Positions 18,699 to 44,169 of a stretch of DNA of 64,000 bases are shown here, one piece after another. The stretch lies in contig CAZMBC010000004.1 in NCBI GenBank assembly GCA_964564685.1, forward strand, positions 23,382 through 87,381, in the 5' to 3' direction. A program made the translations under genes and the position numbers. Numbering within the stretch: the first letter of the stretch is position 1; every line of letters begins with the position of its first letter. The notes beneath the pieces are model-generated. The model did not search any database. It saw only the letters and a list, made by a program, of their open reading frames with translations, and was not told the origin of the DNA. This DNA is from an uncultured Christensenella sp. GTDB taxonomy: Bacteria > Bacillota > Clostridia > Christensenellales > UBA1242.

Positions 18699-20231
18699 TT
18701 AATTTATTATCATGGATGACGCCGTAAATTCTGAAGGTTGGCTAATATTTAACAACTGTAATATTGTTGGCGCAATGTTTACTAACGAACCATCTTGTTT
18801 TAACTGCACATTAAGTTTGGGCTCACTAATTAAAACAAAAGGCACTTTGTTTGTTGTGTGACTTGTCACTTTGTTTCCGTTGCTATCCAACATCATTTCT
18901 GCATTTCCGTGGTCCGCAATCACAACCGCCACACCACCTATTCTTAAAATAGCGTCCACAAGCCTTTTTAATTGGATATCAACCTCTTTTATTGCGGAGA
19001 TTGTTGCAGATAGGTCACCTGTGTGCCCCACCATATCAGGATTTGAATAGTTCAGCGCCATAAAAGTATACTTTTTACTTAATATCTCTGCCACAGCGCA
19101 ATCAGTTATTTCTTTAGCACGCATTTGCGGAACCTTTTCAAACGGAGTATTCTTTATGGTTTCTATTAACACACGCTTTTCATTTTTATAAGGTGTTTCA
19201 TTTCCGCCATTTAAAAAATATGTTACATGAGCGTACTTAGTTGTTTCGGCTATTTTAAGCTGATTTAGTCCGTTTTTACTTATAACCGAAGATAAGTTAA
19301 CTCGCAAGTCGTCCTTTTTAAAAGCTACAAGCGGTTTTATAAACTTTTCATCATAACTTGTAAAAGTGCACATACAAACATTTTTAAACTTTCTAACCTC
19401 AAAACGGTCAAAGTTCTCCACCAGGCTCGCAGTTAGTTGGCGTCCTCTATCTTCCCTAAAGTTAAAGTGTATAATAGCATCACCATCGTTAATACAAGCA
19501 ACAGGCTTTCCATTTTCAGTCACTATAATCGGTTTAATAAATTCGTCCGTTTCACCCAACCTATAGCTTTCTTTAACGGCAGAAAGTGGGTCGTTAGAAT
19601 ACTTTCCTATTCCGTTTACAATGGCATTATAAGCAATTTGTGTGTAGTTATAATTTTGCTCTCTATCCATGGCGTAAAACCTACCTGTAATGCTAGCAAG
19701 TTTATAATCATTATATTTGCTTAACTCAGCCAGCAGGCTTTGCAGATACTTAACACCACTATCCACCGCAGTATCTCTGCCATCTAAAAATGCATGTATT
19801 GCCACATTTTTAACACCGTTATTTTGTGCCATTTTAAGCAAAGCAAAAAGGTGGTTTATGTTACTATGAACGCCTGCGTCACTTAACAATCCCATAAGAT
19901 GCAAAGTACCGTTATTTTCTTTTGCATGCTCCATAGCTTTGCAAAATGCGGGATTGTGAAAAAATTCCCCTGTGCTAATGCTGTTATTAATGCGTTGCAG
20001 GCTTTGAAAAACAACCCTGCCACTGCCAATATGCAAGTGTCCAACTTCACTGTTTCCCATTTGGCCATCGGGCAAGCCAACAGCCCGTCCGCTCGCCTCA
20101 AGTTCTGTGCTGGGGTACAAGTTAAAATATTTATTAAAATTAACAGGATTAGCCAGTTTAACGGCGTTTCCATATGTTTCATCCCTTAAGCCAAAACCGT
20201 CTAGGATAATTAACCCAACAAATTTATTCAT
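18699..20231 (-). CDS. gpmI: 2,3-bisphosphoglycerate-independent phosphoglycerate mutase
   Basis: 510 aa. MGNSEVGHLHIGSGR (catalytic Ser region) and VIADHGNAE. Confidence 0.95.
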   Translation of the reverse strand: MNKFVGLIILDGFGLRDETYGNAVKLANPVNFNKYFNLYPSTELEASGRAVGLPDGQMGNSEVGHLHIGSGRVVFQSLQRINNSISTGEFFHNPAFCKAMEHAKENNGTLHLMGLLSDAGVHSNINHLFALLKMAQNNGVKNVAIHAFLDGRDTAVDSGVKYLQSLLAELSKYNDYKLASITGRFYAMDREQNYNYTQIAYNAIVNGIGKYSNDPLSAVKESYRLGETDEFIKPIIVTENGKPVACINDGDAIIHFNFREDRGRQLTASLVENFDRFEVRKFKNVCMCTFTSYDEKFIKPLVAFKKDDLRVNLSSVISKNGLNQLKIAETTKYAHVTYFLNGGNETPYKNEKRVLIETIKNTPFEKVPQMRAKEITDCAVAEILSKKYTFMALNYSNPDMVGHTGDLSATISAIKEVDIQLKRLVDAILRIGGVAVVIADHGNAEMMLDSNGNKVTSHTTNKVPFVLISEPKLNVQLKQDGSLVNIAPTILQLLNISQPSEFTASSMIIN

Positions 20232-26528: not shown

Positions 26529-27338
26529 CTATTTCTTTTTTGTATTGCGTTTAGTTTCTGTTGGCTTCTTTTCAGTTTTTGGTGCTTCACTAACAGGATT
26601 TTCCTTAACTTCAGAAGCACTAGCGTTTTGAGTTTTATTTGCTCTTTTTGCTTTCTTTTGTTCATCAATTGTTAAAATTTCTTCAAAGAAAGTTGCGTTA
26701 CTGCTATGATAATACACAGTTATAACTGCAAACAAAATCATAAATACTAAAACACCTACTACACCCACTAAAACAGCTACTACAGGGGTTTTAGCAAACA
26801 ATGCAACAACTCCCCATCCACCAAGAACACCTGCAACAATCAATATTAAATATGCTAGCCAGAAAATGCTTTTGTAGGATAATAATGCTGTAACATTGCC
26901 GCTCATTTTGCTTTGGCTTAAGTACAATGCCTCGCCAATTGTTTTTGCCTTATACTTTTCTGCCATAAACAAGGACATTGAATAGTAGCAAATAAGTATT
27001 ACGCCTGGAACAATTAAAAGCACCGTTCCTAATAAGAACATAACAATCATGCTGACGCCTAAAAAGGTTTCTAACCAACCCGTTTTAACCTCGCTGTAAA
27101 TAAGCGCCAAGCTTGGGTTTTCGCCATTAAGAACTCCCCTCATAAAACGAATGTAACCTGTTTCCATAACACCAAACAAGAACACACTAATAGCCCATCC
27201 AGCATATGGAATAAAACAAAGTGCTATTAATGGTGCAAAAGTAACTAATGTTCCAAGAAATGCTTTTGCAAATTTGCCTTTTACTTTTGTTCCGGCTATT
27301 TTAATTAAGTCAAAACCATTTTTACTTAAAGTATTCAT
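26529..27338 (-). CDS. polytopic membrane protein with Lys-rich C-terminal tail (DUF975-like)
   Basis: 269 aa, ~5 TM helices, tail KKAKRANKTQ...KKPTETKRNTKKK. The family assignment is from memory only. Confidence 0.4.
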   Translation of the reverse strand: MNTLSKNGFDLIKIAGTKVKGKFAKAFLGTLVTFAPLIALCFIPYAGWAISVFLFGVMETGYIRFMRGVLNGENPSLALIYSEVKTGWLETFLGVSMIVMFLLGTVLLIVPGVILICYYSMSLFMAEKYKAKTIGEALYLSQSKMSGNVTALLSYKSIFWLAYLILIVAGVLGGWGVVALFAKTPVVAVLVGVVGVLVFMILFAVITVYYHSSNATFFEEILTIDEQKKAKRANKTQNASASEVKENPVSEAPKTEKKPTETKRNTKKK

Positions 27339-27484
27339 ACAAGACCTCCAAACATTTATTTAATAAGTTAGCCATAAAACAAACATTACTGTATTTTTAT
27401 TACTCTTAGTATAGCAAAATTTCCTTAAAAACCAAACAATTTTAAATAAGTTTTACAATTTGTCAAATCTTCTTTTCCATGTAA

Positions 27485-30112
27485 TTATGGTTGTACAATA
27501 TTAATTTTAACAGTTACACGCGCGCTAGTATCTGCAACATAAGGTTTTTCACTAGTGCCCGCCTCAAACAATTGCACATTTAAGTTAAAGCTTCCATCTG
27601 CCTGTTGGGTGTTTATTGTAAAGCTATAAGTAATGTAATTTTCGCCCGATTTTAGTTCACTGCTTTGTGCTTGGAACACCTCGTTAAGCCTGTAATCTTG
27701 TTCAGTAATAGAAACGCACGCCTTGCCAAAATTTGTTAGATAGTTATTAAGTGCAATAAGGTTGGCTTGTGTTTCATTTGCATTTTCAGTAACAGGCGTT
27801 CCGTTTTCATTTAAAGGTATAGACGAAATATAAAACTCTCCCGATTCACCCGGAGCAAATGTTATATTTGCATCAGCAGAATTTGCAAGCATAAATGTGC
27901 CACTTTGTTTAACATATACATACAAAGTGTCCAAGTATTTAGTCACGCTAATTTGCGCTGGAGTGTTGGTATATGTAACAACGCAGTATGCATTTTCAAA
28001 AACATTTGGGTTATCTACACTAGCAATACTTTTACTTACAACATCACCCAAGCCTTCAGACAAACTTGTTTGCATAACCATTGCAAAAAGCGGAATATTG
28101 TTATTAGAAGCATATTTTGGTGAGATTGTTAAACTGTTCCCCTCACCAATCAAATAAAATTCATTTGCATCATTGTATTTTATGCGCTCACCTTCCATAT
28201 CGCACAAAACAATTTTACGTTGTATTTCTAGCACACCTGCATTATCATACGTGCTATAAAGTTCATGTTCTTCCAAGGGTGATATAATATTTTCAATGCC
28301 TGCCAGTGCTGGAACAAACCACAACACACGTTTATATTCCATTTGACTAAACAACTCACCTTTGTTTAGGTCGTTAAAATTAATATCTACGCTGTTTAAA
28401 ATAATATTGTTTCTATCTGCATTGGTTAAGTCGTGATTTAGTGCAATTTTGTAAGATGTGTTGTCAAAAGCAATTGATGATTGCGTATATGTAATCCTAA
28501 CACCCATTGGTTGAGCATATGTATATTCAATATCACCATTATTTAGTATTGTTTGCAAATAGGATATTAAAACAACATTGGATGTAACAGGTCGCAAAGC
28601 CTCAAAACTCCATAATGTTTGATTGTTACTTAAAGATTTGTTAACTTTAATACATGTGTCGTCATACACATATGTTATGTTGTTAACATAAAGATACTTA
28701 AAGTATTCAAACCCATTAGTATTTACTGTTTTATTCTTTTCATTATCTCCCAAAAGTCCATAGTCAATATCTGTATTCACATATGGTGCAATCAGCACAT
28801 CTTTCATACGGCTTTTTAAAATTTCGTTATCTTCAGTAGAATTAGTTTCTGATTGTAACGACAAACCAAAATAGTTGTCATTTTCACCCTGCTCGTCTAC
28901 TGAAATAGTGTTAACATCAAAATTTTTAATGTCAAAAATATTTGCCTCAAAATTAATCTTTTCTGTATTAATTTTTGATAGCACAATATCCGAAATAATA
29001 AATTCCGCCTTATTTATTACAAAAATATAGTTTAAACTTTGTTTCAAAGTGTCTAAATCATCATTAGCAAATTCAATTAAGCCTGTATCCGGATTTGTAT
29101 TGTCGGCAAAGAAAAGTTCAGCCTCTTCATTTGTAGCAATGTAACTATAATAGGTGTTAATGAACGCGTTAAACTCACTAAAATCGTAGTCAGCAATATT
29201 TCCGTTCATAATTGTTTCTATCCACTCATCCTTAAAAGCGTTTTGCATAATAAATGTTTTGTGAGTAAACGTTGTAAACGAAACATCATTGCCTGAAGCC
29301 AGTGGATAAAACTCAAAAGTTTTATTTGCACTAGTGGTGTTATTTAACACACTATCCAACTTTAACTGTTGACTGTTTGATGTGTAATAGTATGTTTTTT
29401 TAAACGAAAGGTTATTTATAAATGAATTAGAAAACTCTACAAAACCTGCTTGGCAGTAATATTCATTGCTATTTTCTGCACTTAAATTTAAACTGCTTTT
29501 TGTGCCATTTAACTTGGTTACCGAAAGCGCATATTTGTTTCCTATCTTATTTAAGTCATTACCCGAAAGTGTTAGCTCTTTAAGTGGACTATCCACCAAA
29601 AGTTTTAGTGTTTGTTTAACAAGGCCGCTACTATCGGTAAACACTAATTCCACTTTTCCACCAATTGGTCTGCCTTCTTCGTCTTTTGCAAACTCCAAAG
29701 TAAAAGGTCGGCCCGCAACCACGGTCTTTGGTGAATTATTAAGAACATCTCTACCCTCTTTTATTTCTACTTTAAGAATTGTTTGATTTGAATCTTCAGG
29801 CTCGTAGGAAATGTGCGTCGTATAGTTTTTATCACCCACAATAAGCACCTCGTTACCCTGCACAAAAATACCATCGGTAGAGTTATCGCTAGCTGTGCCT
29901 TCTTCAATAGTAAGCGCTGTTATGTAAATAGGTTTTGTGCTAAATCCGCCCGTTATCCATGTTACCAATACTGCCAATACTGCCACACCAAAAATACCTA
30001 GCAAACTAAAACCAACAATTTTGCCAAATCTCTTTTGCTTTGCTTTTTGTTTTAACTTTTTTTCTTCTTTCGCTTTCTTCTCTTCAGGCGAAATGTATTT
30101 ATATTTTTTCAT
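27485..30112 (-). CDS. large N-terminally anchored extracytoplasmic protein, function unknown
   Basis: 875 aa. Lys-rich cytoplasmic N-terminus, one TM helix (IVGFSLLGIFGVAVLAVLVTWI), then an Asn/Thr/Ser/Tyr-rich ectodomain. Confidence 0.6.
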   Translation of the reverse strand: MKKYKYISPEEKKAKEEKKLKQKAKQKRFGKIVGFSLLGIFGVAVLAVLVTWITGGFSTKPIYITALTIEEGTASDNSTDGIFVQGNEVLIVGDKNYTTHISYEPEDSNQTILKVEIKEGRDVLNNSPKTVVAGRPFTLEFAKDEEGRPIGGKVELVFTDSSGLVKQTLKLLVDSPLKELTLSGNDLNKIGNKYALSVTKLNGTKSSLNLSAENSNEYYCQAGFVEFSNSFINNLSFKKTYYYTSNSQQLKLDSVLNNTTSANKTFEFYPLASGNDVSFTTFTHKTFIMQNAFKDEWIETIMNGNIADYDFSEFNAFINTYYSYIATNEEAELFFADNTNPDTGLIEFANDDLDTLKQSLNYIFVINKAEFIISDIVLSKINTEKINFEANIFDIKNFDVNTISVDEQGENDNYFGLSLQSETNSTEDNEILKSRMKDVLIAPYVNTDIDYGLLGDNEKNKTVNTNGFEYFKYLYVNNITYVYDDTCIKVNKSLSNNQTLWSFEALRPVTSNVVLISYLQTILNNGDIEYTYAQPMGVRITYTQSSIAFDNTSYKIALNHDLTNADRNNIILNSVDINFNDLNKGELFSQMEYKRVLWFVPALAGIENIISPLEEHELYSTYDNAGVLEIQRKIVLCDMEGERIKYNDANEFYLIGEGNSLTISPKYASNNNIPLFAMVMQTSLSEGLGDVVSKSIASVDNPNVFENAYCVVTYTNTPAQISVTKYLDTLYVYVKQSGTFMLANSADANITFAPGESGEFYISSIPLNENGTPVTENANETQANLIALNNYLTNFGKACVSITEQDYRLNEVFQAQSSELKSGENYITYSFTINTQQADGSFNLNVQLFEAGTSEKPYVADTSARVTVKINIVQP

Positions 30113-30492: not shown

Positions 30493-31419
<927 letters not shown>

Positions 31420-37598: not shown

Positions 37599-37627
37599 AT
37601 TATATAATACAAACTAAAATATTCCAA
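37599..37627 (-). promoter_or_regulatory. sigma-A-type promoter for the VirB4-like gene
   Basis: On the minus strand: TTGGAA (37627-37622), 17 nt, TATAAT (37604-37599). Confidence 0.45.
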
Positions 37628-37751
37628 ACTTATTTAACAACATATTTTTTAATTTAATGCATCCGCCTAAACCATAAAATTGCATTGCACAACATAAAAA
37701 AAACCAAAAAAACACTTGTATTGTTAGTTTGAATAGTATTATATTGGCAAG

Positions 37752-37780
37752 AAAAAAGTGGCTAATTTCAGCCACTTTTT
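37752..37780 (-). terminator. rho-independent terminator after the 888-aa membrane-protein gene
   Basis: A-run, stem agtggc (37757-37762) / gccact (37771-37776), then T-run. Confidence 0.65.
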
Positions 37781-37788
37781 GTGTTAAT

Positions 37789-40455
37789 CTATTTTTTACT
37801 GTACTTACCAATAAGTTTAGCAAGTTTTTCTTGATTTGCCGCCTCTGCAGCCTTGGTTGCAGCCTTTGCAGCAGATTTGCTAATTTCTTCAAACATATCG
37901 TTAATAGCTTTATTAATCCTACCAGTAGGTATTTTAAAGTCATATTTATCCATTTCTTTTGCAGCCTTAAGATATGCTTTTTTAGCACCATCGGTCATTG
38001 TAGAAATAGCATGATTAAACGCATTATTTACATTTGCTAAATAATCATTGAATTTACCATTAACTTTTGCCTCGTCTGTAAATCTAGCATTTGTAATTGT
38101 GTCTATATCGCTAACAGTCATTTTTGCTGTAACCTTGTTTAGATCTATTTCGCTGTTACTCTTGGCAAGTTCCCCTTCAATAGTAGTAATTAAGTCACTA
38201 ATTTTAGCTTCTTGATCCAAAGTATCCTCAAACCTGGTTGCAAGATTTTGATTTGTTTTAAGTCCATTTAGCACTTGTTCTAATTGTTGTCTACTAGTAT
38301 CAACATCCATAGTTTTTAATGTAATACCCTGTAAAGCATCTCTCATAAGTTGCGCTAGTTGTTCATTGTTCTGTGATAACATTGCAGTTGGTGTTAATCT
38401 AGCGCCTGCACCAGCCTGATTTACTTTTTTATAAGCCTCTGTATCATTAAGTCTTGCTATATTAGCATTTATAGAATTGCTTCCGCCTTTTTTAGGAAGA
38501 TCAGATATTAAATCATCACCTGCAGACCAAATATGTTCTCCAACGCCTTTCATGCCACTCATAAAATTACTCCATTTGGTATTATTGCTTTGTTTACTTG
38601 ATGCCGCGGTGCTAGCAACTTCACCACCAACAAGCTTTGTAGCTTTTCCATCCAGGTCTACCATGGATTTACCACCAAATGGCTCAATATATCCACCCGT
38701 AAATTTGTTAACAAACGAGCCTATTGCCGAGCCTTGAACTGCATCGTTAAACATAACATGTGTTCTTGCCAATCCTCTAGCGCCCCTTGCAGCTGAAATA
38801 GTAAGATTCTTTCTTTTGCGCTCATCAAGCACATTTTTGCGTCCAGACGCTCTATTAATAGTTTCAGTTAATTCTGAATTGTTTTCCATAGCCCTATTCA
38901 TTGTATTCAGTTTGTCTTCATCGCTCATCTTATCAAAATCAGCTTGTCCTTTTGCATCTAATGTGTTTCGATACGCATTAAGAATGTCCGCACTATGTTC
39001 TTCATTGTATGCTATATTTTCTTGATTTTTCTTAAGTTTATGCTTTGAAATACCGCCTGCAATTCCTTGTGCTATACCTATACCACCAAGTGCAAATTTA
39101 GTAGCTTTTGTTCCGTATTTTACAGCTTGTTCGGATACGCTTTTAGACATTTTTGTACCAGCATCAAGAATTTCTTCACCACCAATATAGCCCGAAATAA
39201 GTTTGGCCATATCGTTTAGCATTAAAAGGCCAACTAAAATAAAGATACATTGAACCCAGAAATTAAACGGATTCCACCCATATGCAACTGGCCAAAGGTT
39301 AATTTGCTTAATTATTCCTATTAAAAAGAAGAATAGATTAAGCGAAATTACCACTCCATAAGCACCCAATACCGCGCCAATAAAGTTTTTACGCCAAGAC
39401 TTATATGCTGCTCCGCCATCAAGCGGATGTAACGCAATAACTGCTGGAGAGATAATAAACAACGCCGCAACCTTGTAAAGCCTCATAACCAAGCCAAAAC
39501 AAGATTTTAACAAGCAAGCAAGCGCAAGACCTGACGCAAAATATATAATGAGATAATTTCCAGAGCCAAGGTTATAGAATGTTTGCACTGCTTTCGTGTT
39601 TGAATAGTGTAAAAAATAAGTTGAATTTTTATAATCAAACTTAACAGCATCACTCTTTGTTGCTGAAAAAGAAGAATCTATTGCATTAGCAAGAGTTTGT
39701 ATGTTTATTTCATCATTTCCATTTTGAGTAACATTAAATACCTCATATGCATTTTTTCTTTCTGTTGTAGTTCCTTCAGTAGCACCATTTACATCTACCA
39801 CATCTACCTCTATGGTAAAATCGCCCTTCTCATCAACTTTATTTTCAGTGCCTGTACCGCCAGACAAAAACTCATCACCCTTAACCCATTCTCGTTTACC
39901 AGTGCGAACAACATTGGTGTCACCCATGCCTGCTAAAAATATAGTGCCCGCAATGGATGAAGATCCGCCACGGCTAGTAGCACGGTCAACAGCCTCTAAC
40001 AGTGTGTTACTAACAATAACACCTAAAATACAAACAATAGGAACAAGGATAAACATACCCAAAGCCTTAATGGATGCACCAATAACAGTGCCTTTGCTGT
40101 TTTTGCTGCCTTCAGTAGTATATTCAACTCTGATTAATTGAACGATAGTGGCAATAATTAAAAGCGCAACTGCAAACAATGTCATTGTAATAACAATTTC
40201 AACAATACGATTGTTAGTTAATAAACTTAAAACCACGTCATCCTGTGGTATTGCATTTCCCGAGTCATTAACAACATACACAGATTCAAGCCCAGCCAAT
40301 TTACGAAAAGTCTCCTGAACAAAATCCAACAACTTAAAAAATATAGAGGCAAGCTCATAGAAGAACCTACCCAAGGTATAGTTTAAAACATTTATAAGCC
40401 AAGGAACTAATACTCCAATAAAAGCAACTCCTATACCAATAGCAACAACAGCCAT
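37789..40455 (-). CDS. 888-aa polytopic membrane protein with large loop and ~460-aa soluble C-terminal region (VirB6/TrbL-position candidate)
   Basis: About seven hydrophobic helices in aa 1-430, with a ~135-aa hydrophilic loop after helix 3. The tail is helical and Ala/Lys-rich. The start is the ATG at 40455 (GGAG RBS). The ORF-track start at 40461 is a TTG. Confidence 0.55.
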   Translation of the reverse strand: MAVVAIGIGVAFIGVLVPWLINVLNYTLGRFFYELASIFFKLLDFVQETFRKLAGLESVYVVNDSGNAIPQDDVVLSLLTNNRIVEIVITMTLFAVALLIIATIVQLIRVEYTTEGSKNSKGTVIGASIKALGMFILVPIVCILGVIVSNTLLEAVDRATSRGGSSSIAGTIFLAGMGDTNVVRTGKREWVKGDEFLSGGTGTENKVDEKGDFTIEVDVVDVNGATEGTTTERKNAYEVFNVTQNGNDEINIQTLANAIDSSFSATKSDAVKFDYKNSTYFLHYSNTKAVQTFYNLGSGNYLIIYFASGLALACLLKSCFGLVMRLYKVAALFIISPAVIALHPLDGGAAYKSWRKNFIGAVLGAYGVVISLNLFFFLIGIIKQINLWPVAYGWNPFNFWVQCIFILVGLLMLNDMAKLISGYIGGEEILDAGTKMSKSVSEQAVKYGTKATKFALGGIGIAQGIAGGISKHKLKKNQENIAYNEEHSADILNAYRNTLDAKGQADFDKMSDEDKLNTMNRAMENNSELTETINRASGRKNVLDERKRKNLTISAARGARGLARTHVMFNDAVQGSAIGSFVNKFTGGYIEPFGGKSMVDLDGKATKLVGGEVASTAASSKQSNNTKWSNFMSGMKGVGEHIWSAGDDLISDLPKKGGSNSINANIARLNDTEAYKKVNQAGAGARLTPTAMLSQNNEQLAQLMRDALQGITLKTMDVDTSRQQLEQVLNGLKTNQNLATRFEDTLDQEAKISDLITTIEGELAKSNSEIDLNKVTAKMTVSDIDTITNARFTDEAKVNGKFNDYLANVNNAFNHAISTMTDGAKKAYLKAAKEMDKYDFKIPTGRINKAINDMFEEISKSAAKAATKAAEAANQEKLAKLIGKYSKK

Positions 40456-40701: not shown

Positions 40702-42726
40702 ATGTTAAAGGTGATGAAAATGGCAGAAGAAAACAAAAAATCCGGCGCTGAAAAATTGGCAATGGGAATTTTTAAATTTATAGTGGCAGTTGCAGCCCTG
40801 TTTGTGGTTGCGTTGATAGTTGTTAGCTACATAACCACAAAGTCAGTTAAGTTTGATATTAGCGTTGTGTTAGATAGCAAATTTATACTGGTATTTGGCT
40901 TGCTTTTGTTATTCTATTTCCTTATAAAACTATCAGCACTAACCAAGCCGAAAAAAAGCGACAGTGGCGCTAAACTAACTACAAAGGGCGGAGTTAAAAA
41001 ATATTACGATAGCCAGTGGCTAACGCCCGAGCAAATGAAACACACCTATGGATTTTATAGTTACGAGTATAGCGAACTTAAAAATGTTAAAAAAATAGGC
41101 ATACCTGTTAGAGCAGAAGTTGTTAATGGAAAGCTTCAGGTCAACATGTACCAAAACATCCATACAATGGTTATTGGTACAACAGGCTCGGGCAAAACTA
41201 GCCAGTTTGTTGTTCCAACACTACAAATATTAAGCGAATCGGCAGCAAAACCATGTTTTGTAATAACCGACCCTAAAAGCGAACTTTATAACAGTCATAG
41301 CGAAAAACTGAAAAAACAAGGATATAACGTTTTGGTGTTCGATTTAAGCGACCCTTTTAAAAGTACTTGTTGGAACCCTATGACAAGGGCTTATGAATTA
41401 AACGAGAAAGCAAACAATTTGCACAAAATGGTTAAAGTACACCAGAACGAAGACCCACGCAAAACCAATCTTACACTTGCAGCAAATGCTTATTACAGCG
41501 AATGGTACGAACTTAATGGTTTTGCCTTTGCAGACAAGCAATCACTTAACGCATACATTGAAAGTGTTAAACAATCTCTTAAAAACGAGGCTTTTGAGGA
41601 CTTGCGTGATATTGCAACAACCCTTTGCCCTATACAAAGCACACAAGACCCTATTTGGGAGCGCGGCGCAAAGGACTTGGTTTTGGGCACAATGCTTGCC
41701 ATGCTTGAGGATAGCGAAGACCCGCGCTTAGACATGACCAAAGAGCGATTTAACTTTTATAATTTAAGCAAAATTTTAAACCTAAAAGATAACGACCCTT
41801 ACAACCAAATAAAAAGCATTACAAACTATTTTCAGGGCAGAGATAAATTAAGCCTTTCTGCACAGCTTGCAAACCAAGTTGTAACCAATGCCGACAAAAC
41901 TGCAAAATCATACATGGGTATAGTTACTGACAGAATGTCCCTATTTTCTGACACTGGCGTGTGCTATGCTACCAGTAAGAACGAAATGGACTTAAGTTCG
42001 TTTGCAGATAGGCCAACCGCATTGTTTATAAAAATACCAGATGAAAAAACAACCCGCTACCCTATTGCAACAATGTTTATTTCACAACTTTACAAAGTAT
42101 TGGTTGAAATAGCCAGAACAAAAGGCGGAGCACTTCCTAGAGATTGTTACTTTATTTTGGATGAGTTTGCTAACATGCCTAAAATAGAAGAATTTGACAA
42201 AATGATTACCGTTGCTCGTTCCAGAAAAATTTGGTTCATTTTAATTTTACAATCGTATGCACAATTAAATTTGAGATATGGTGACCAGATTGCAACCACA
42301 GTTAAAGATAACTGCAACATCCATGTGTTCCTTGCATCAAACGACCAAAACACACTAGAAGAATTTAGTAAAAGATGTGGAAATATTAGCGTAGAAACAG
42401 AAAGCGTAACAATTAACAAGGGTAAAAAAGAAGAGCAAACAAACAAGACCACAGCAATTAATATTGATACCCGTCCACTTATTTATCCTGCGGAATTGGG
42501 CTCACTTAAAAATCAATGTATTGTTTCGATATTAAAGCAAATGCCAATTAAATCAACGTTCACACCAAGTTATTCTGGAAGTGTTAAGAACATTTACGAC
42601 TTAACTCCTGCCCCACCAAATTATTCCTTACCTAAAAACCTTAACGAACAAGAATTGTATTACGACATAAGAAAGCGTAACGAAATTGTTTTGGGTAATG
42701 TTGATGACGACTCAAATGGTTGGTAA
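40702..42726 (+). CDS. VirD4/TraG-type type IV coupling protein
   Basis: Two N-terminal TM helices, Walker A VIGTTGSGKTSQFVVPT (41176-41199) and Walker B YFILDEFANMPKI. The true start may be the ATG at 40720 (AAGGTGA RBS). Confidence 0.85.
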   Translation: MLKVMKMAEENKKSGAEKLAMGIFKFIVAVAALFVVALIVVSYITTKSVKFDISVVLDSKFILVFGLLLLFYFLIKLSALTKPKKSDSGAKLTTKGGVKKYYDSQWLTPEQMKHTYGFYSYEYSELKNVKKIGIPVRAEVVNGKLQVNMYQNIHTMVIGTTGSGKTSQFVVPTLQILSESAAKPCFVITDPKSELYNSHSEKLKKQGYNVLVFDLSDPFKSTCWNPMTRAYELNEKANNLHKMVKVHQNEDPRKTNLTLAANAYYSEWYELNGFAFADKQSLNAYIESVKQSLKNEAFEDLRDIATTLCPIQSTQDPIWERGAKDLVLGTMLAMLEDSEDPRLDMTKERFNFYNLSKILNLKDNDPYNQIKSITNYFQGRDKLSLSAQLANQVVTNADKTAKSYMGIVTDRMSLFSDTGVCYATSKNEMDLSSFADRPTALFIKIPDEKTTRYPIATMFISQLYKVLVEIARTKGGALPRDCYFILDEFANMPKIEEFDKMITVARSRKIWFILILQSYAQLNLRYGDQIATTVKDNCNIHVFLASNDQNTLEEFSKRCGNISVETESVTINKGKKEEQTNKTTAINIDTRPLIYPAELGSLKNQCIVSILKQMPIKSTFTPSYSGSVKNIYDLTPAPPNYSLPKNLNEQELYYDIRKRNEIVLGNVDDDSNGW

Positions 42727-42831: not shown

Positions 42832-43194
42832 CTATTTGCGCGAGTTATTTATTATATCCGTAACCCATCTGCCTATAGCGCTTGAATATTTGCAAAACAA
42901 AACCAATAAAATTAACAATATTAATAACACAACAAAACCAATTATTGCATTTACCATACGCTTACGCGCTTCGTCACGCTTTTCTCCACTTTCGGATTTG
43001 GCATAAGTTACGCCAAGTACAATAGCATAAATTGAACCTGCACTTGCAACTAATATAAGTAGAGGAACAAGTATTTTACCTAGTAATTCAGTAATGGGTT
43101 CTAAAGTTTGCTTCCACCAAGACTCATTATAGCCAATTGGGTCAAGCTTTTCACTGCCCAAAAAACTTAATATCTTACTTATCATATATTTCAT
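42832..43194 (-). CDS. pilin-like two-TM small protein, paralogue 1 (VirB2/TrbC-like topology)
   Basis: 120 aa. MKYMISKILSFLG leader, TM1 ILVPLLILVASAGSIYAIVLGV, charged loop AKSESGEKRDEARKRM, TM2 VNAIIGFVVLLILLILLVLF. Confidence 0.5.
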   Translation of the reverse strand: MKYMISKILSFLGSEKLDPIGYNESWWKQTLEPITELLGKILVPLLILVASAGSIYAIVLGVTYAKSESGEKRDEARKRMVNAIIGFVVLLILLILLVLFCKYSSAIGRWVTDIINNSRK

Positions 43195-43214
43195 AAACTT
43201 TTCTCCTAAAAGTC

Positions 43215-43604
43215 CTACTTAACGCTTGTTATCCATTCAGCAATATCGTCAGCATTCGCAGAAAGCAATTTCATTAATATTAGCAATATTAACATAACAA
43301 CTATTCCTATTGCACCATTTATTAATCTTTTTTTAATTTCGCCACGTTTATCGCTATTTTCAGCCCTACTCATTTGAACACCCAGCACAATTCCATAAAT
43401 GGAGCCCGCAACACCCAATACGATAATTATTGGCAACAAGATTGCGTCTATAATATCCACAACCGGTTTTATAATTTTCATATAGTAACTATTTTTATCT
43501 GTATCTATAATTACATCAAGACCATCTTCCCCTTTAACAAGGCTTTCATCTGTTGCATTGCCTAAAAACGATAAAATTTTTGAAAGAATTAATTGAAGTT
43601 TCAT
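43215..43604 (-). CDS. pilin-like two-TM small protein, paralogue 2
   Basis: 129 aa. MKLQLILSKILSFLG. Core LLPIIIVLGVAGSIYGIVLGVQMSRAENSDKRGEIKKRLINGAIGIVVMLILLILMKL. Confidence 0.5.
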   Translation of the reverse strand: MKLQLILSKILSFLGNATDESLVKGEDGLDVIIDTDKNSYYMKIIKPVVDIIDAILLPIIIVLGVAGSIYGIVLGVQMSRAENSDKRGEIKKRLINGAIGIVVMLILLILMKLLSANADDIAEWITSVK

Positions 43605-43639
43605 GTTTCACCCTTTTCAAACTTTCTTTTGTTATTATA

Positions 43640-43668
43640 ATTTTAACAAAAAAACACAAATATAACAA
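43640..43668 (-). promoter_or_regulatory. candidate sigma-A promoter for paralogues 2 and 1
   Basis: On the minus strand: TTGTTA (43668-43663), 17 nt, TAAAAT (43645-43640). Confidence 0.35.
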
Positions 43669-43678
43669 CACTTTTAAA

Positions 43679-43707
43679 TAAAAAAACCGCAATTATATGC
43701 GGTTTTT
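43679..43707 (-). terminator. rho-independent terminator after paralogue 3
   Basis: A-run, stem accgca (43686-43691) / tgcggt (43698-43703), then T-run. Confidence 0.65.
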
Positions 43708-43720
43708 AATTTTCATGCTT

Positions 43721-44104
43721 TTATGTTGTTGTGCTTGGTGTTGTAGCTGATTCATCTACCCAACCAAAAATTGCATTAGCATTTTGAGTGAATAGTTTCA
43801 TTAAAATTAAAGCTACTAATATGATAACAATTCCAATTACGGCGTTAATCAAGCGTTTTTTAGCTTCTTCACGTTGGTCTGAACTTTCAGCTTTAGCATA
43901 TTGAACGCCAAGAACTATACCATATACTGTACCTGCCACGCCCAAAACAATAATAACTGGTACCAAAAGTTGATCTAACGCCTTAATAATTGGCACAAGA
44001 ATATTTACTATCCATTGCGGCGTATCACCATAATTAATACCATTTTGAATATTATCTTTACCTAAAAAGCTCATAATTTTCATTAATAACATCTGAAGTT
44101 TCAT
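43721..44104 (-). CDS. pilin-like two-TM small protein, paralogue 3
   Basis: 127 aa. MKLQMLLMKIMSFLG. Core LVPVIIVLGVAGTVYGIVLGVQYAKAESSDQREEAKKRLINAVIGIVIILVALILMKL. Thr/Ser/Pro C-terminal tip. Confidence 0.5.
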   Translation of the reverse strand: MKLQMLLMKIMSFLGKDNIQNGINYGDTPQWIVNILVPIIKALDQLLVPVIIVLGVAGTVYGIVLGVQYAKAESSDQREEAKKRLINAVIGIVIILVALILMKLFTQNANAIFGWVDESATTPSTTT

Positions 44105-44140: not shown

Positions 44141-44169
44141 ATTATAGCAATTTAATTTAAAACTTCCAA
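44141..44169 (-). promoter_or_regulatory. sigma-A-type promoter (extended -10) for paralogue 3
   Basis: On the minus strand: TTGGAA (44169-44164), 17 nt, TGcTATAAT (44149-44141). Confidence 0.45.

Follow-up and report, generated by a model that had tools for sequence, protein, structure and literature searches.

Three adjacent minus-strand genes, called here pil1, pil2 and pil3, in a 64,000-nucleotide stretch of DNA (the window) from an uncultured Christensenella sp. (GenBank assembly GCA_964564685.1, contig CAZMBC010000004.1, positions 23,382 to 87,381) probably encode paralogous pilin-like subunits of a domesticated, non-conjugative chromosomal type IV secretion system (T4SS), core to a family of gut Clostridia with genomes of roughly 1 Mb. 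On the best reading, the closest known system is that of the pilin arrays of Patescibacteria. An earlier note, made from the sequence alone, had put the three products forward as candidate T4SS pilin-type or VirB3-like subunits; the former proposal is supported by matches to PF18895 (all three) and to NF045849 (two of the three) and by the neighbouring genes for VirD4, a VirB6-like protein and VirB4. The pilin assignment is made on the grounds of membership in curated families, of topology, of where the genes lie and of the habit of forming arrays, not of a proven link to VirB2.

All three proteins reach the gathering score of PF18895 (T4SS_pilin), 26.6: pil3 with 39.2, pil1 with 33.0 and pil2 marginally, with 26.7; the same family is matched by 100 of 100 diverse relatives. 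The equivalog model NF045849 (Mbov_0395 family pilin-like conjugal transfer protein), with a cutoff of 40, is matched by pil1 (41.0) and pil3 (40.5), while pil2 (37.4) falls below it. The PF18895 pattern is a core of about 70 residues in which a charged loop parts two hydrophobic helices. By hydropathy each protein has the VirB2-like topology that the earlier note expected, with two transmembrane (TM) helices, in pil3 at about residues 46-64 and 88-106, with five to six Lys or Arg residues in the loop between them. AlphaFold2, given an alignment of 39 sequences, models pil3 as a long hairpin of two helices (30-71 and 75-107, pLDDT >90), preceded by a low-confidence N-terminal helix and followed by a short C-terminal one.

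The pilin genes lie 5.3 kb from virB4, and the genes for VirD4, the VirB6-like protein and VirB4 are all found within 8 kb. The cluster is collinear in two congeners, G008 and G021, in the order pgm-dus-murJ-spoVT...fba...virB4-virB6L-virD4-three pilins-giant-rho-like-ypeB-sleB-spoIIR-sipL-spo0A, "giant" being a large surface protein gene. Of 81 genomes of the family, 0.7-1.6 Mb in size, 77 (52 of 54 genera) encode a full-length VirB4 of this type, usually as a single copy, while 14 control genomes encode none; 78 (53 of 54 genera) carry a pilin gene. The GC content and codon usage of the cluster are host-like; together with the deep synteny they rule out its recent horizontal acquisition. No relaxase or recombinase was found in the cluster or anywhere in the 64-kb window, and no Rep_trans relaxase in the genome; no MobL relaxase was found in 14 of the 15 congeners searched for it, yet the cluster is kept there. 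On all these counts the T4SS cluster is non-mobile.

The number of pilin genes in the 81 genomes varies: 44 carry one, 26 carry two and eight carry three or more (at most seven), and in three none was detected. In the genus, arrays of two to four pilin genes are common. G008 and G021 retain three positional orthologue pairs (a, b and c), and in another subclade there are two deeply split pilin types, separated with 100/100 support. The best hits of pil3 and pil2 include clear positional orthologues at 57-60% identity, those of pil2 (57-60%) being the middle genes of G008 and G021; across species conservation is highest for pil3 (59-69%), and pil1 has diverged most. The paralogue lineages are thus old, distinct and long maintained. 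As orthologues are only 55-70% identical in protein, synonymous divergence (dS) between them would be saturated.

The earlier note had considered that such genes, if widespread outside T4SS contexts, would belong to a generic membrane-protein family. A T4SS gene lies within 8 kb at 44 of 79 related loci, and in all 12 genomes (0.9-1.3 Mb) tested because their pilin loci are away from T4SS genes a matching VirB4 is encoded elsewhere, so that this objection is not upheld. In a sample of 300 Clostridia, the genomes with at least three PF18895 copies (11, from three families) are all of 1.0-1.5 Mb, whereas matched genomes of at least 2 Mb carry one or two copies only.

Two observations on distant pilin genes may be added. 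One metagenome-assembled genome with a three-pilin T4SS locus (L036) has a fourth paralogue (L038, 7764-8312), flanked by gap and eno and remote from the T4SS; this protein of 182 aa is N-terminally extended and 71% identical to pil3 over residues 28-120. In other lineages one or two pilin genes occupy a conserved site by hup, queH-like and arsR-like genes (L091, L101, L103).

Sequence and signals of the three genes

The open reading frames of 120, 129 and 127 codons reported in the earlier note were recovered at exactly the same coordinates (Table 1). The three proteins can be aligned along their full length, with 34 invariant positions and a pairwise identity of about 40-51%. Identity is distributed very unevenly, as the earlier note had described: from 64% over the leader (residues 1-15) it drops to 7% over the ~22 residues that follow (the N-variable segment), rises to 53% across the hairpin core and falls to 19% in the C-tail, a contrast reached by none of 5000 column shuffles (p<0.0002). 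Among 35 pil3 homologues from other genomes conservation is again lowest in the N-variable segment (23% identity) and the C-tail (39%), against 73% in the core.

The consensus motifs given in the earlier note describe the trio overall, with a few departures: pil1 reads LILVASAG in place of I(V/L)(L/V)G(V/A)AG in the core, the charged loop, present in all, begins with S rather than A in pil2, and the second TM helix of pil3 has V at one (I/L) position. The leader, MK..(L/I)..KI(L/M)SFLG, was rightly seen as conserved, although its description as amphipathic is unsupported, its hydrophobic moment of 0.32-0.43 being equalled by 7-20% of shuffles. While the leader protein sequence is kept in the trio, the DNA differs at many synonymous sites; because these differences run throughout, the similarity of the leaders is attributed to selection, and gene conversion as its source is ruled out. 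The C-terminus of pil3 (43721-43780) is the Thr/Ser/Pro tail ATTPSTTT, noticed earlier as TTPSTTT, and it recurs as SSTTTPSTT in two paralogues of the congener G012 (L020, 12374-12790 and 12904-13308). A tail of this kind may be a motif for O-glycosylation, or a linker, at the exposed end.

The transcription signals proposed earlier were reproduced as consensus matches: pil3 has an extended -10 promoter-like sequence and a strong palindromic terminator of its own, and pil2 and pil1, 20 nt apart and with no terminator in the gap, are probably co-transcribed. Promoter-like sites are no more frequent in the region than in shuffled sequences, and five terminator-like sites were found against 1.0 expected. 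Shine-Dalgarno motifs precede all three genes, that of pil1 being AGGAG. Among the three, codon adaptation is highest for pil3 (0.66).

Table 1. Features of the pilin region and its surroundings in the window, and of the integrative and conjugative element (ICE) on contig C2 of the same genome
Feature	Position	Strand	Remarks
269-aa membrane protein and 875-aa N-anchored protein	26529-30112	-	Position conserved in G008 and G021
Acidic protein, 951 aa	31827-34682	-	Downstream of virB4; no TM segment; poorly conserved
VirB4 ATPase, 881 aa	34889-37534	-	NF045975 (Mbov_0397 family), 600.8 against 590
VirB6-like polytopic membrane protein, 890 aa	37789-40461	-	NF045848 (MMCAP2_0566), 129.7 against 90; NF045889 (Mbov_0396), 77 against 70
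VirD4-type coupling protein	40702-42726	+	PF02534, 185.8 bits; NF045973 (CD1115 family), 298.6 against 250
pil1, 120 aa	42832-43194	-	20 nt downstream of pil2
pil2, 129 aa	43215-43604	-	N-variable segment acidic and the longest of the three
Weaker promoter-like site before pil2-pil1	43640-43668	-	TTGTTA, 17 nt, TG-TAAAAT
Palindromic intrinsic terminator between pil3 and pil2	43682-43707		10-bp stem; T-run on both strands
pil3, 127 aa	43721-44104	-	Own promoter-like site and terminator; C-terminus ATTPSTTT
Promoter-like site of pil3	44141-44169	-	TTGGAA-17-TG-TATAAT, TG-extended; consensus match only
Surface protein, 3,260 aa	44391-54173	+	Signal peptide and C-terminal TM anchor; divergent from pil3
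ICE: recombination and accessory genes	C2		Two large serine recombinases, DNA methyltransferase, ArdC-like protein
ICE: T4SS	C2		VirB4 (879 aa), VirB6-like (462 aa), VirD4 (721 aa), 170-aa anchored protein
ICE: pilin, 96 aa	C2 221654-221944		PF18895; single copy
ICE: surface protein, 1,487 aa	C2		Analogue of the 3,260-aa protein, in the same relative position
ICE: MobL relaxase, 399 aa	C2		PF18555 at 112.8 bits; small accessory gene alongside

The chromosomal cluster and the elements of the same genome

The host genome is of 1.01 Mb in seven contigs and 94% complete, with dnaA on another contig than the window. The window holds a ribosomal-protein operon, glycolytic genes and a full complement of sporulation markers, SpoVT, Spo0A, SpoIIR, SleB, YpeB and SipL. 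Its relatives are metagenome-assembled genomes of uncultured gut Clostridia from humans and ruminants, some labelled Christensenella. A search for sequencing runs yielded three gut-metagenome DNA runs only, all of one study. Genomes of the family UBA1242 (Christensenellales) are described as being under or around 1 Mb, lacking biosynthetic pathways and unexpectedly keeping sporulation genes (PMC12306168), and the traits of the host fit this description. In the same work an obligate dependence on partner cells was proposed from metabolism, with "hypothetical membrane-bound proteins" for cell interactions, and neither a secretion system nor conjugation is mentioned (PMC12306168).

Within the T4SS cluster, virD4 is convergent with the pilin genes and its product is 61-65% identical in congeners. 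The VirB6-like protein has about eight hydrophobic segments in its first 415 residues and a long C-terminal extension. In G013 and G015 the pilin genes abut the VirB6-like gene, giving the order Mbov_0395-0396-0397, whereas virD4 intervenes in the window. VirB4 begins with a two-TM hairpin (TM 23-41 and 45-63) in the position of a fused VirB3, with no Pfam VirB3 match, and the same hairpin is found in the VirB4 of both T4SSs of the genome. The 3,260-aa surface protein is presumed to be an adhesin partner of the pilins, and a homologous giant gene adjoins pilin genes in many related loci. No Pfam or NCBIfam match was obtained for the 951-aa acidic protein or for the 269-aa and 875-aa proteins.

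VirB4 is 80% identical in G008 and G021, and the flanking core genes are about 50-65% identical. Phosphoglycerate mutase (18699-20231) and fructose-bisphosphate aldolase reach only about 60% identity between these species, so that constraint is stronger on the secretion ATPase than on enzymes of central glycolysis. This aldolase gene, of class II (30496-31419, plus strand), stands among the T4SS-linked genes and is syntenic in congeners. UBA1242 genomes were reported to be without a class II fructose-bisphosphate aldolase (PMC12306168), which means that this genus is different or that the family assignment should be checked. At 54367-55527 (minus strand) a Rho-like protein is encoded, with matches to the Pfam Rho_N and Rho RNA-binding domains only and none to the ATPase domain; its position is conserved and it is 34-35% identical in congeners. 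A 125-aa open reading frame (37614-37991, minus strand) that runs, in a different frame, over the 3' end of the VirB6-like gene has no family match and is probably not a gene.

The genome contains a second T4SS of the same type, within a complete ICE at about 205.8-231.5 kb of contig C2 (locus L016, C2:212000-231500). It is homologous to the chromosomal system part for part, with 45% identity for VirB4, 37% for VirD4 and 37-47% for the pilin core. Like the chromosomal pilins, the ICE pilin belongs to PF18895, to this T4SS type and next to a giant surface protein gene; it differs in being a single copy without the N-terminal leader and variable segment, and in lying on an element with MobL and two serine recombinases. 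Hence the ICE and the chromosomal cluster represent one machine type in two forms, a conjugative one with one short pilin and a domesticated one with longer pilins, three in this genome. The ICE pilin has an almost identical counterpart in a genome from a different family, in keeping with horizontal spread. The MobL relaxases of the genome are found only in this ICE and at about 93.6-97.3 kb of contig C5, where a MobL-type relaxase (405 aa, 93.6 bits) is accompanied by a 153-aa accessory gene and a 455-aa recombinase and by no T4SS genes; the C5 element is probably an integrative and mobilisable element (IME), needing a T4SS in trans. A tblastn search with pil3 and the ICE pilin against 72,556 plasmids gave no match.

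Alternative explanations

Several results weigh against the pilin interpretation. A Sec-type signal peptide is not evident in pil1-3, since simple hydropathy finds no TM-grade stretch in the first 30 residues; the N-terminal motif, of 13-15 residues and interrupted by Lys, looks too short for a Sec h-region. The TrbC family PF04956 is approached by pil3 only, with a score of 16.8 against a threshold of 27.9. Weak TrbC matches are found in 16 of 100 members, more rarely than matches to unrelated membrane families, and were rejected as pilin evidence because unrelated TM families match more members. Alignment with hhalign against TrwL, R46 VirB2 and TrbC gave a probability of 0.2%, a weak negative as the templates, drawn like those for VirB3 from R388, R46 and R751, consist of three sequences each. 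The pil3 model has no PDB match in Foldseek at E<=0.001, only generic hairpins being returned and no conjugative pilin among the top 50, and profile searches of PDB sequences with two alignments (A2 and A3) found no related solved structure. Links to canonical VirB2/TrbC and to VirB3 are thus not demonstrable by these searches. The absence of relaxases is to be read with the scope of the searches, which covered MobL alone in the congeners, and Rep_trans and MOB-P in the host genome only.

A further difficulty of the same kind is raised by proteins of the family in which the hairpin is concatenated. Among library proteins, P0047 (1,775 aa) has 16 hairpin units, P0134 (1,046 aa) seven and P0156 (552 aa) six, and about 15 proteins of ~200 aa have two units each; P0047 also has a signal peptide and Cys-containing linkers between its units. 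They are either polyprotein precursors or membrane proteins with 12-32 TM helices made of pilin units, and chains of 6-16 hairpins are hard to square with simple polymerisation of subunits unless they are processed.

These concatenates, with their integral-membrane look, favour a reading in which the trio never leaves the membrane and consists of VirB3-like or purely inner-membrane T4SS assembly factors, as CDS13 and CDS15 of the Mycoplasma ICE are described. CDS15, the Mycoplasma counterpart, has indeed been called "VirB3-like" (PMC12857230), and the want of an evident Sec signal peptide and of demonstrable VirB2 homology points the same way. This reading is nevertheless improbable, and the VirB3-like alternative of the earlier note is unsupported by the family evidence: PF05101 (VirB3) is absent from the 25 Pfam families most often matched by 100 members, the hhalign probability against TrwM, TrbD and R46 VirB3 is again 0.2% (a weak negative, from three-sequence templates), and VirB4 already bears a two-TM hairpin where VirB3 is fused in some systems. 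Besides, there are three copies here, and multi-copy divergent arrays are a trait of pilins rather than of VirB3, while the curators of both Pfam and NCBIfam name the family pilin or pilin-like.

If the products are pilins, it may be asked whether they act together. They could be three alternative major subunits, each forming its own homopolymer and not one heteropolymer, so that the surface is diversified for escape from phage or immunity or for partner recognition. The segments expected to be exposed are the fastest-evolving in paralogues and orthologues alike, the genes form two separate transcription units, copy number ranges from 0 to 7 across the family, and the same explanation has been offered for the VirB2 arrays of Bartonella and Anaplasma and for those of Patescibacteria (10.1101/2025.01.22.634366). 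On the other hand, orthologous sets are kept across species whose core enzymes are only about 60% identical, which fits a fixed division of labour better than turnover; neither gene-conversion tracts nor recent duplicates are present in the genome, and no switching element (invertible promoter or silent cassettes) was seen. Alternative homopolymers are considered unlikely, though the likeliest of the rival readings.

As to the machine, the chromosomal T4SS could still transfer DNA, acting in trans on the IME or the ICE or on the chromosome, as in mycoplasma chromosomal transfer, with the pilins serving mating-pair formation. VirD4 is retained and conserved at 61-65%, two MobL relaxases are encoded elsewhere in the genome (C2 and C5), and VirB4 is similar at equivalog level to the ATPase of Mycoplasma ICEs, which drive chromosomal transfer. 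Yet 14 of 15 congeners keep the cluster with no MobL anywhere, the ICE comes with a full T4SS of its own that shares just 37-47% identity with the chromosomal T4SS, and conservation that is family-wide, single-copy and syntenic in genomes of 0.7-1.6 Mb is unlike that of conjugation modules; a role in DNA transfer is accordingly considered quite unlikely. That the cluster is the decaying remnant of an integrated element and the trio a set of functionless relics is scarcely credible: although no relaxase or integrase lies beside it and the 951-aa neighbour is poorly conserved, every gene is intact and has a Shine-Dalgarno site, VirB4 exceeds glycolytic enzymes in conservation, the VirB4 type and the pilin occur in 95% and 96% of the family genomes, respectively, and the leader protein is kept despite synonymous divergence.

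Proposed function and relation to known systems

For pilin-like subunits of a domesticated T4SS, the following mechanism may be suggested. Each pilin would sit in the membrane N-out and C-out, its Lys/Arg-rich loop facing the cytoplasm. The hairpins would be drawn from the bilayer by the VirB6-like platform and the VirB4 ATPase and be stacked to form a pilus-like tube, or an extension of the channel, passing through the wall, the invariant hairpin serving the packing of subunits and the unrelated N-proximal segment and C-tail lying on the outer face. As pil3 has its own strong promoter-like site and terminator and is the best conserved and best codon-adapted, it is probably the principal subunit; pil2 and pil1, in one operon, would then be accessory or alternative subunits. 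The machine would most likely serve contact or exchange with partner cells, as proposed for Patescibacteria, and not the self-transfer of an element.

In Patescibacteria, arrays of 2-11 PF18895/VirB2-like genes with an average identity of 25% are found near virB4, on the chromosome and with no relaxase (10.1101/2025.01.22.634366; PMC12857230), and in Ca. Southlakia epibionticum a six-gene pilin array is essential (10.1101/2025.01.22.634366). The locus described here shares with them the PF18895 family, tandem divergent paralogues near virB4, a conserved hairpin with variable ends, a chromosomal location without a relaxase and lineage-wide occurrence, as well as a monoderm host whose genome is of ~1 Mb and whose lifestyle has been proposed to depend on partners. 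It differs in that its host is a peptidoglycan-walled, endospore-forming Firmicute (Spo0A, SpoIIR, SleB/YpeB, SipL), and in that its VirB4 falls, by hidden Markov model (HMM) placement and not by phylogeny, in the Mycoplasma-ICE equivalog and not in the candidate phyla radiation (CPR) clade. Furthermore, the pilins are here paired with a giant adhesin-like protein, whereas no adhesins appear in the CPR study (10.1101/2025.01.22.634366), and they have no evident Sec-type signal peptide, in contrast to the "Sec-secreted" TM7x array.

The best-scoring curated models are those of the Mycoplasma ICE, Mbov_0395 (CDS15, NF045849), Mbov_0396 (CDS16) and Mbov_0397 (CDS17, VirB4), and the order pilin, VirB6-like, VirB4 recurs in the congeners G013 and G015. 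In Mycoplasma, however, there is a single gene, on a mobile ICE of a wall-less host, as opposed to three paralogues in a non-mobile cluster; the proteins described here also have an extra N-terminal part of 40-50 residues that is absent from the 80-position NF045849 model, and pil2 remains below its cutoff. The likeness to VirB2, TrbC and TraA (PF04956, PF05513) lies in a precursor of ~120 residues with two hydrophobic helices and a short charged loop, in the VirB4 and VirB6 neighbours and in the predicted hairpin. It does not extend to detectable sequence homology or to a long cleavable Sec signal peptide; here the loop is of greater length and charge, VirB5, a TraF-type cyclase and outer-membrane components are missing, and the pilus is a predicted one. 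Tandem amplification with variation of exposed parts, read as surface diversification, is shared with VirB2 of Bartonella and Anaplasma (10.1101/2025.01.22.634366), which are diderm intracellular pathogens with canonical VirB2 and have no evolutionary relation to the present system beyond a possible superfamily.

VirB2-type subunits have been stated to be absent from Gram-positive T4SSs except those of Patescibacteria, which are regarded as unique among monoderms in their potential for conjugative pili (PMC12857230, a FEMS review of December 2025). At the level of gene content the locus is a counter-example to this view, since a spore-forming Firmicute has tandem arrays of that pilin family; the C2 ICE, moreover, is a conjugative Firmicute element that does carry a pilin-like gene. 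A fixed chromosomal, family-conserved, pilin-bearing T4SS is a combination credited in current reviews to Patescibacteria only. PF18895 pilins are thus found here both in a conjugative ICE, as one copy, and in the relaxase-less core chromosomal T4SS of a reduced-genome family, and the presence of the two in one genome offers a natural comparison of a conjugative with a domesticated machine.

The T4SS, its pilins and the giant adhesin are an obvious candidate for the partner-cell interface proposed for UBA1242 (PMC12306168). A bolder proposal, offered tentatively and with more doubt than confidence, is that a whole family of walled, endospore-forming gut Firmicutes, probably UBA1242, depends on a domesticated, relaxase-less T4SS that builds a true VirB2-like pilus from one to seven paralogues and, together with the giant adhesin, links the cell to a partner for the uptake of metabolites or DNA. 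If this were true, the family would represent a second, independent case of the solution found in Patescibacteria, pilus-forming T4SSs would not be confined to diderms and the CPR, and multi-pilin arrays, which at three or more copies occur only in genomes of 1.0-1.5 Mb in the sample of 300 Clostridia, would mark partner-dependent, reduced-genome lineages generally.

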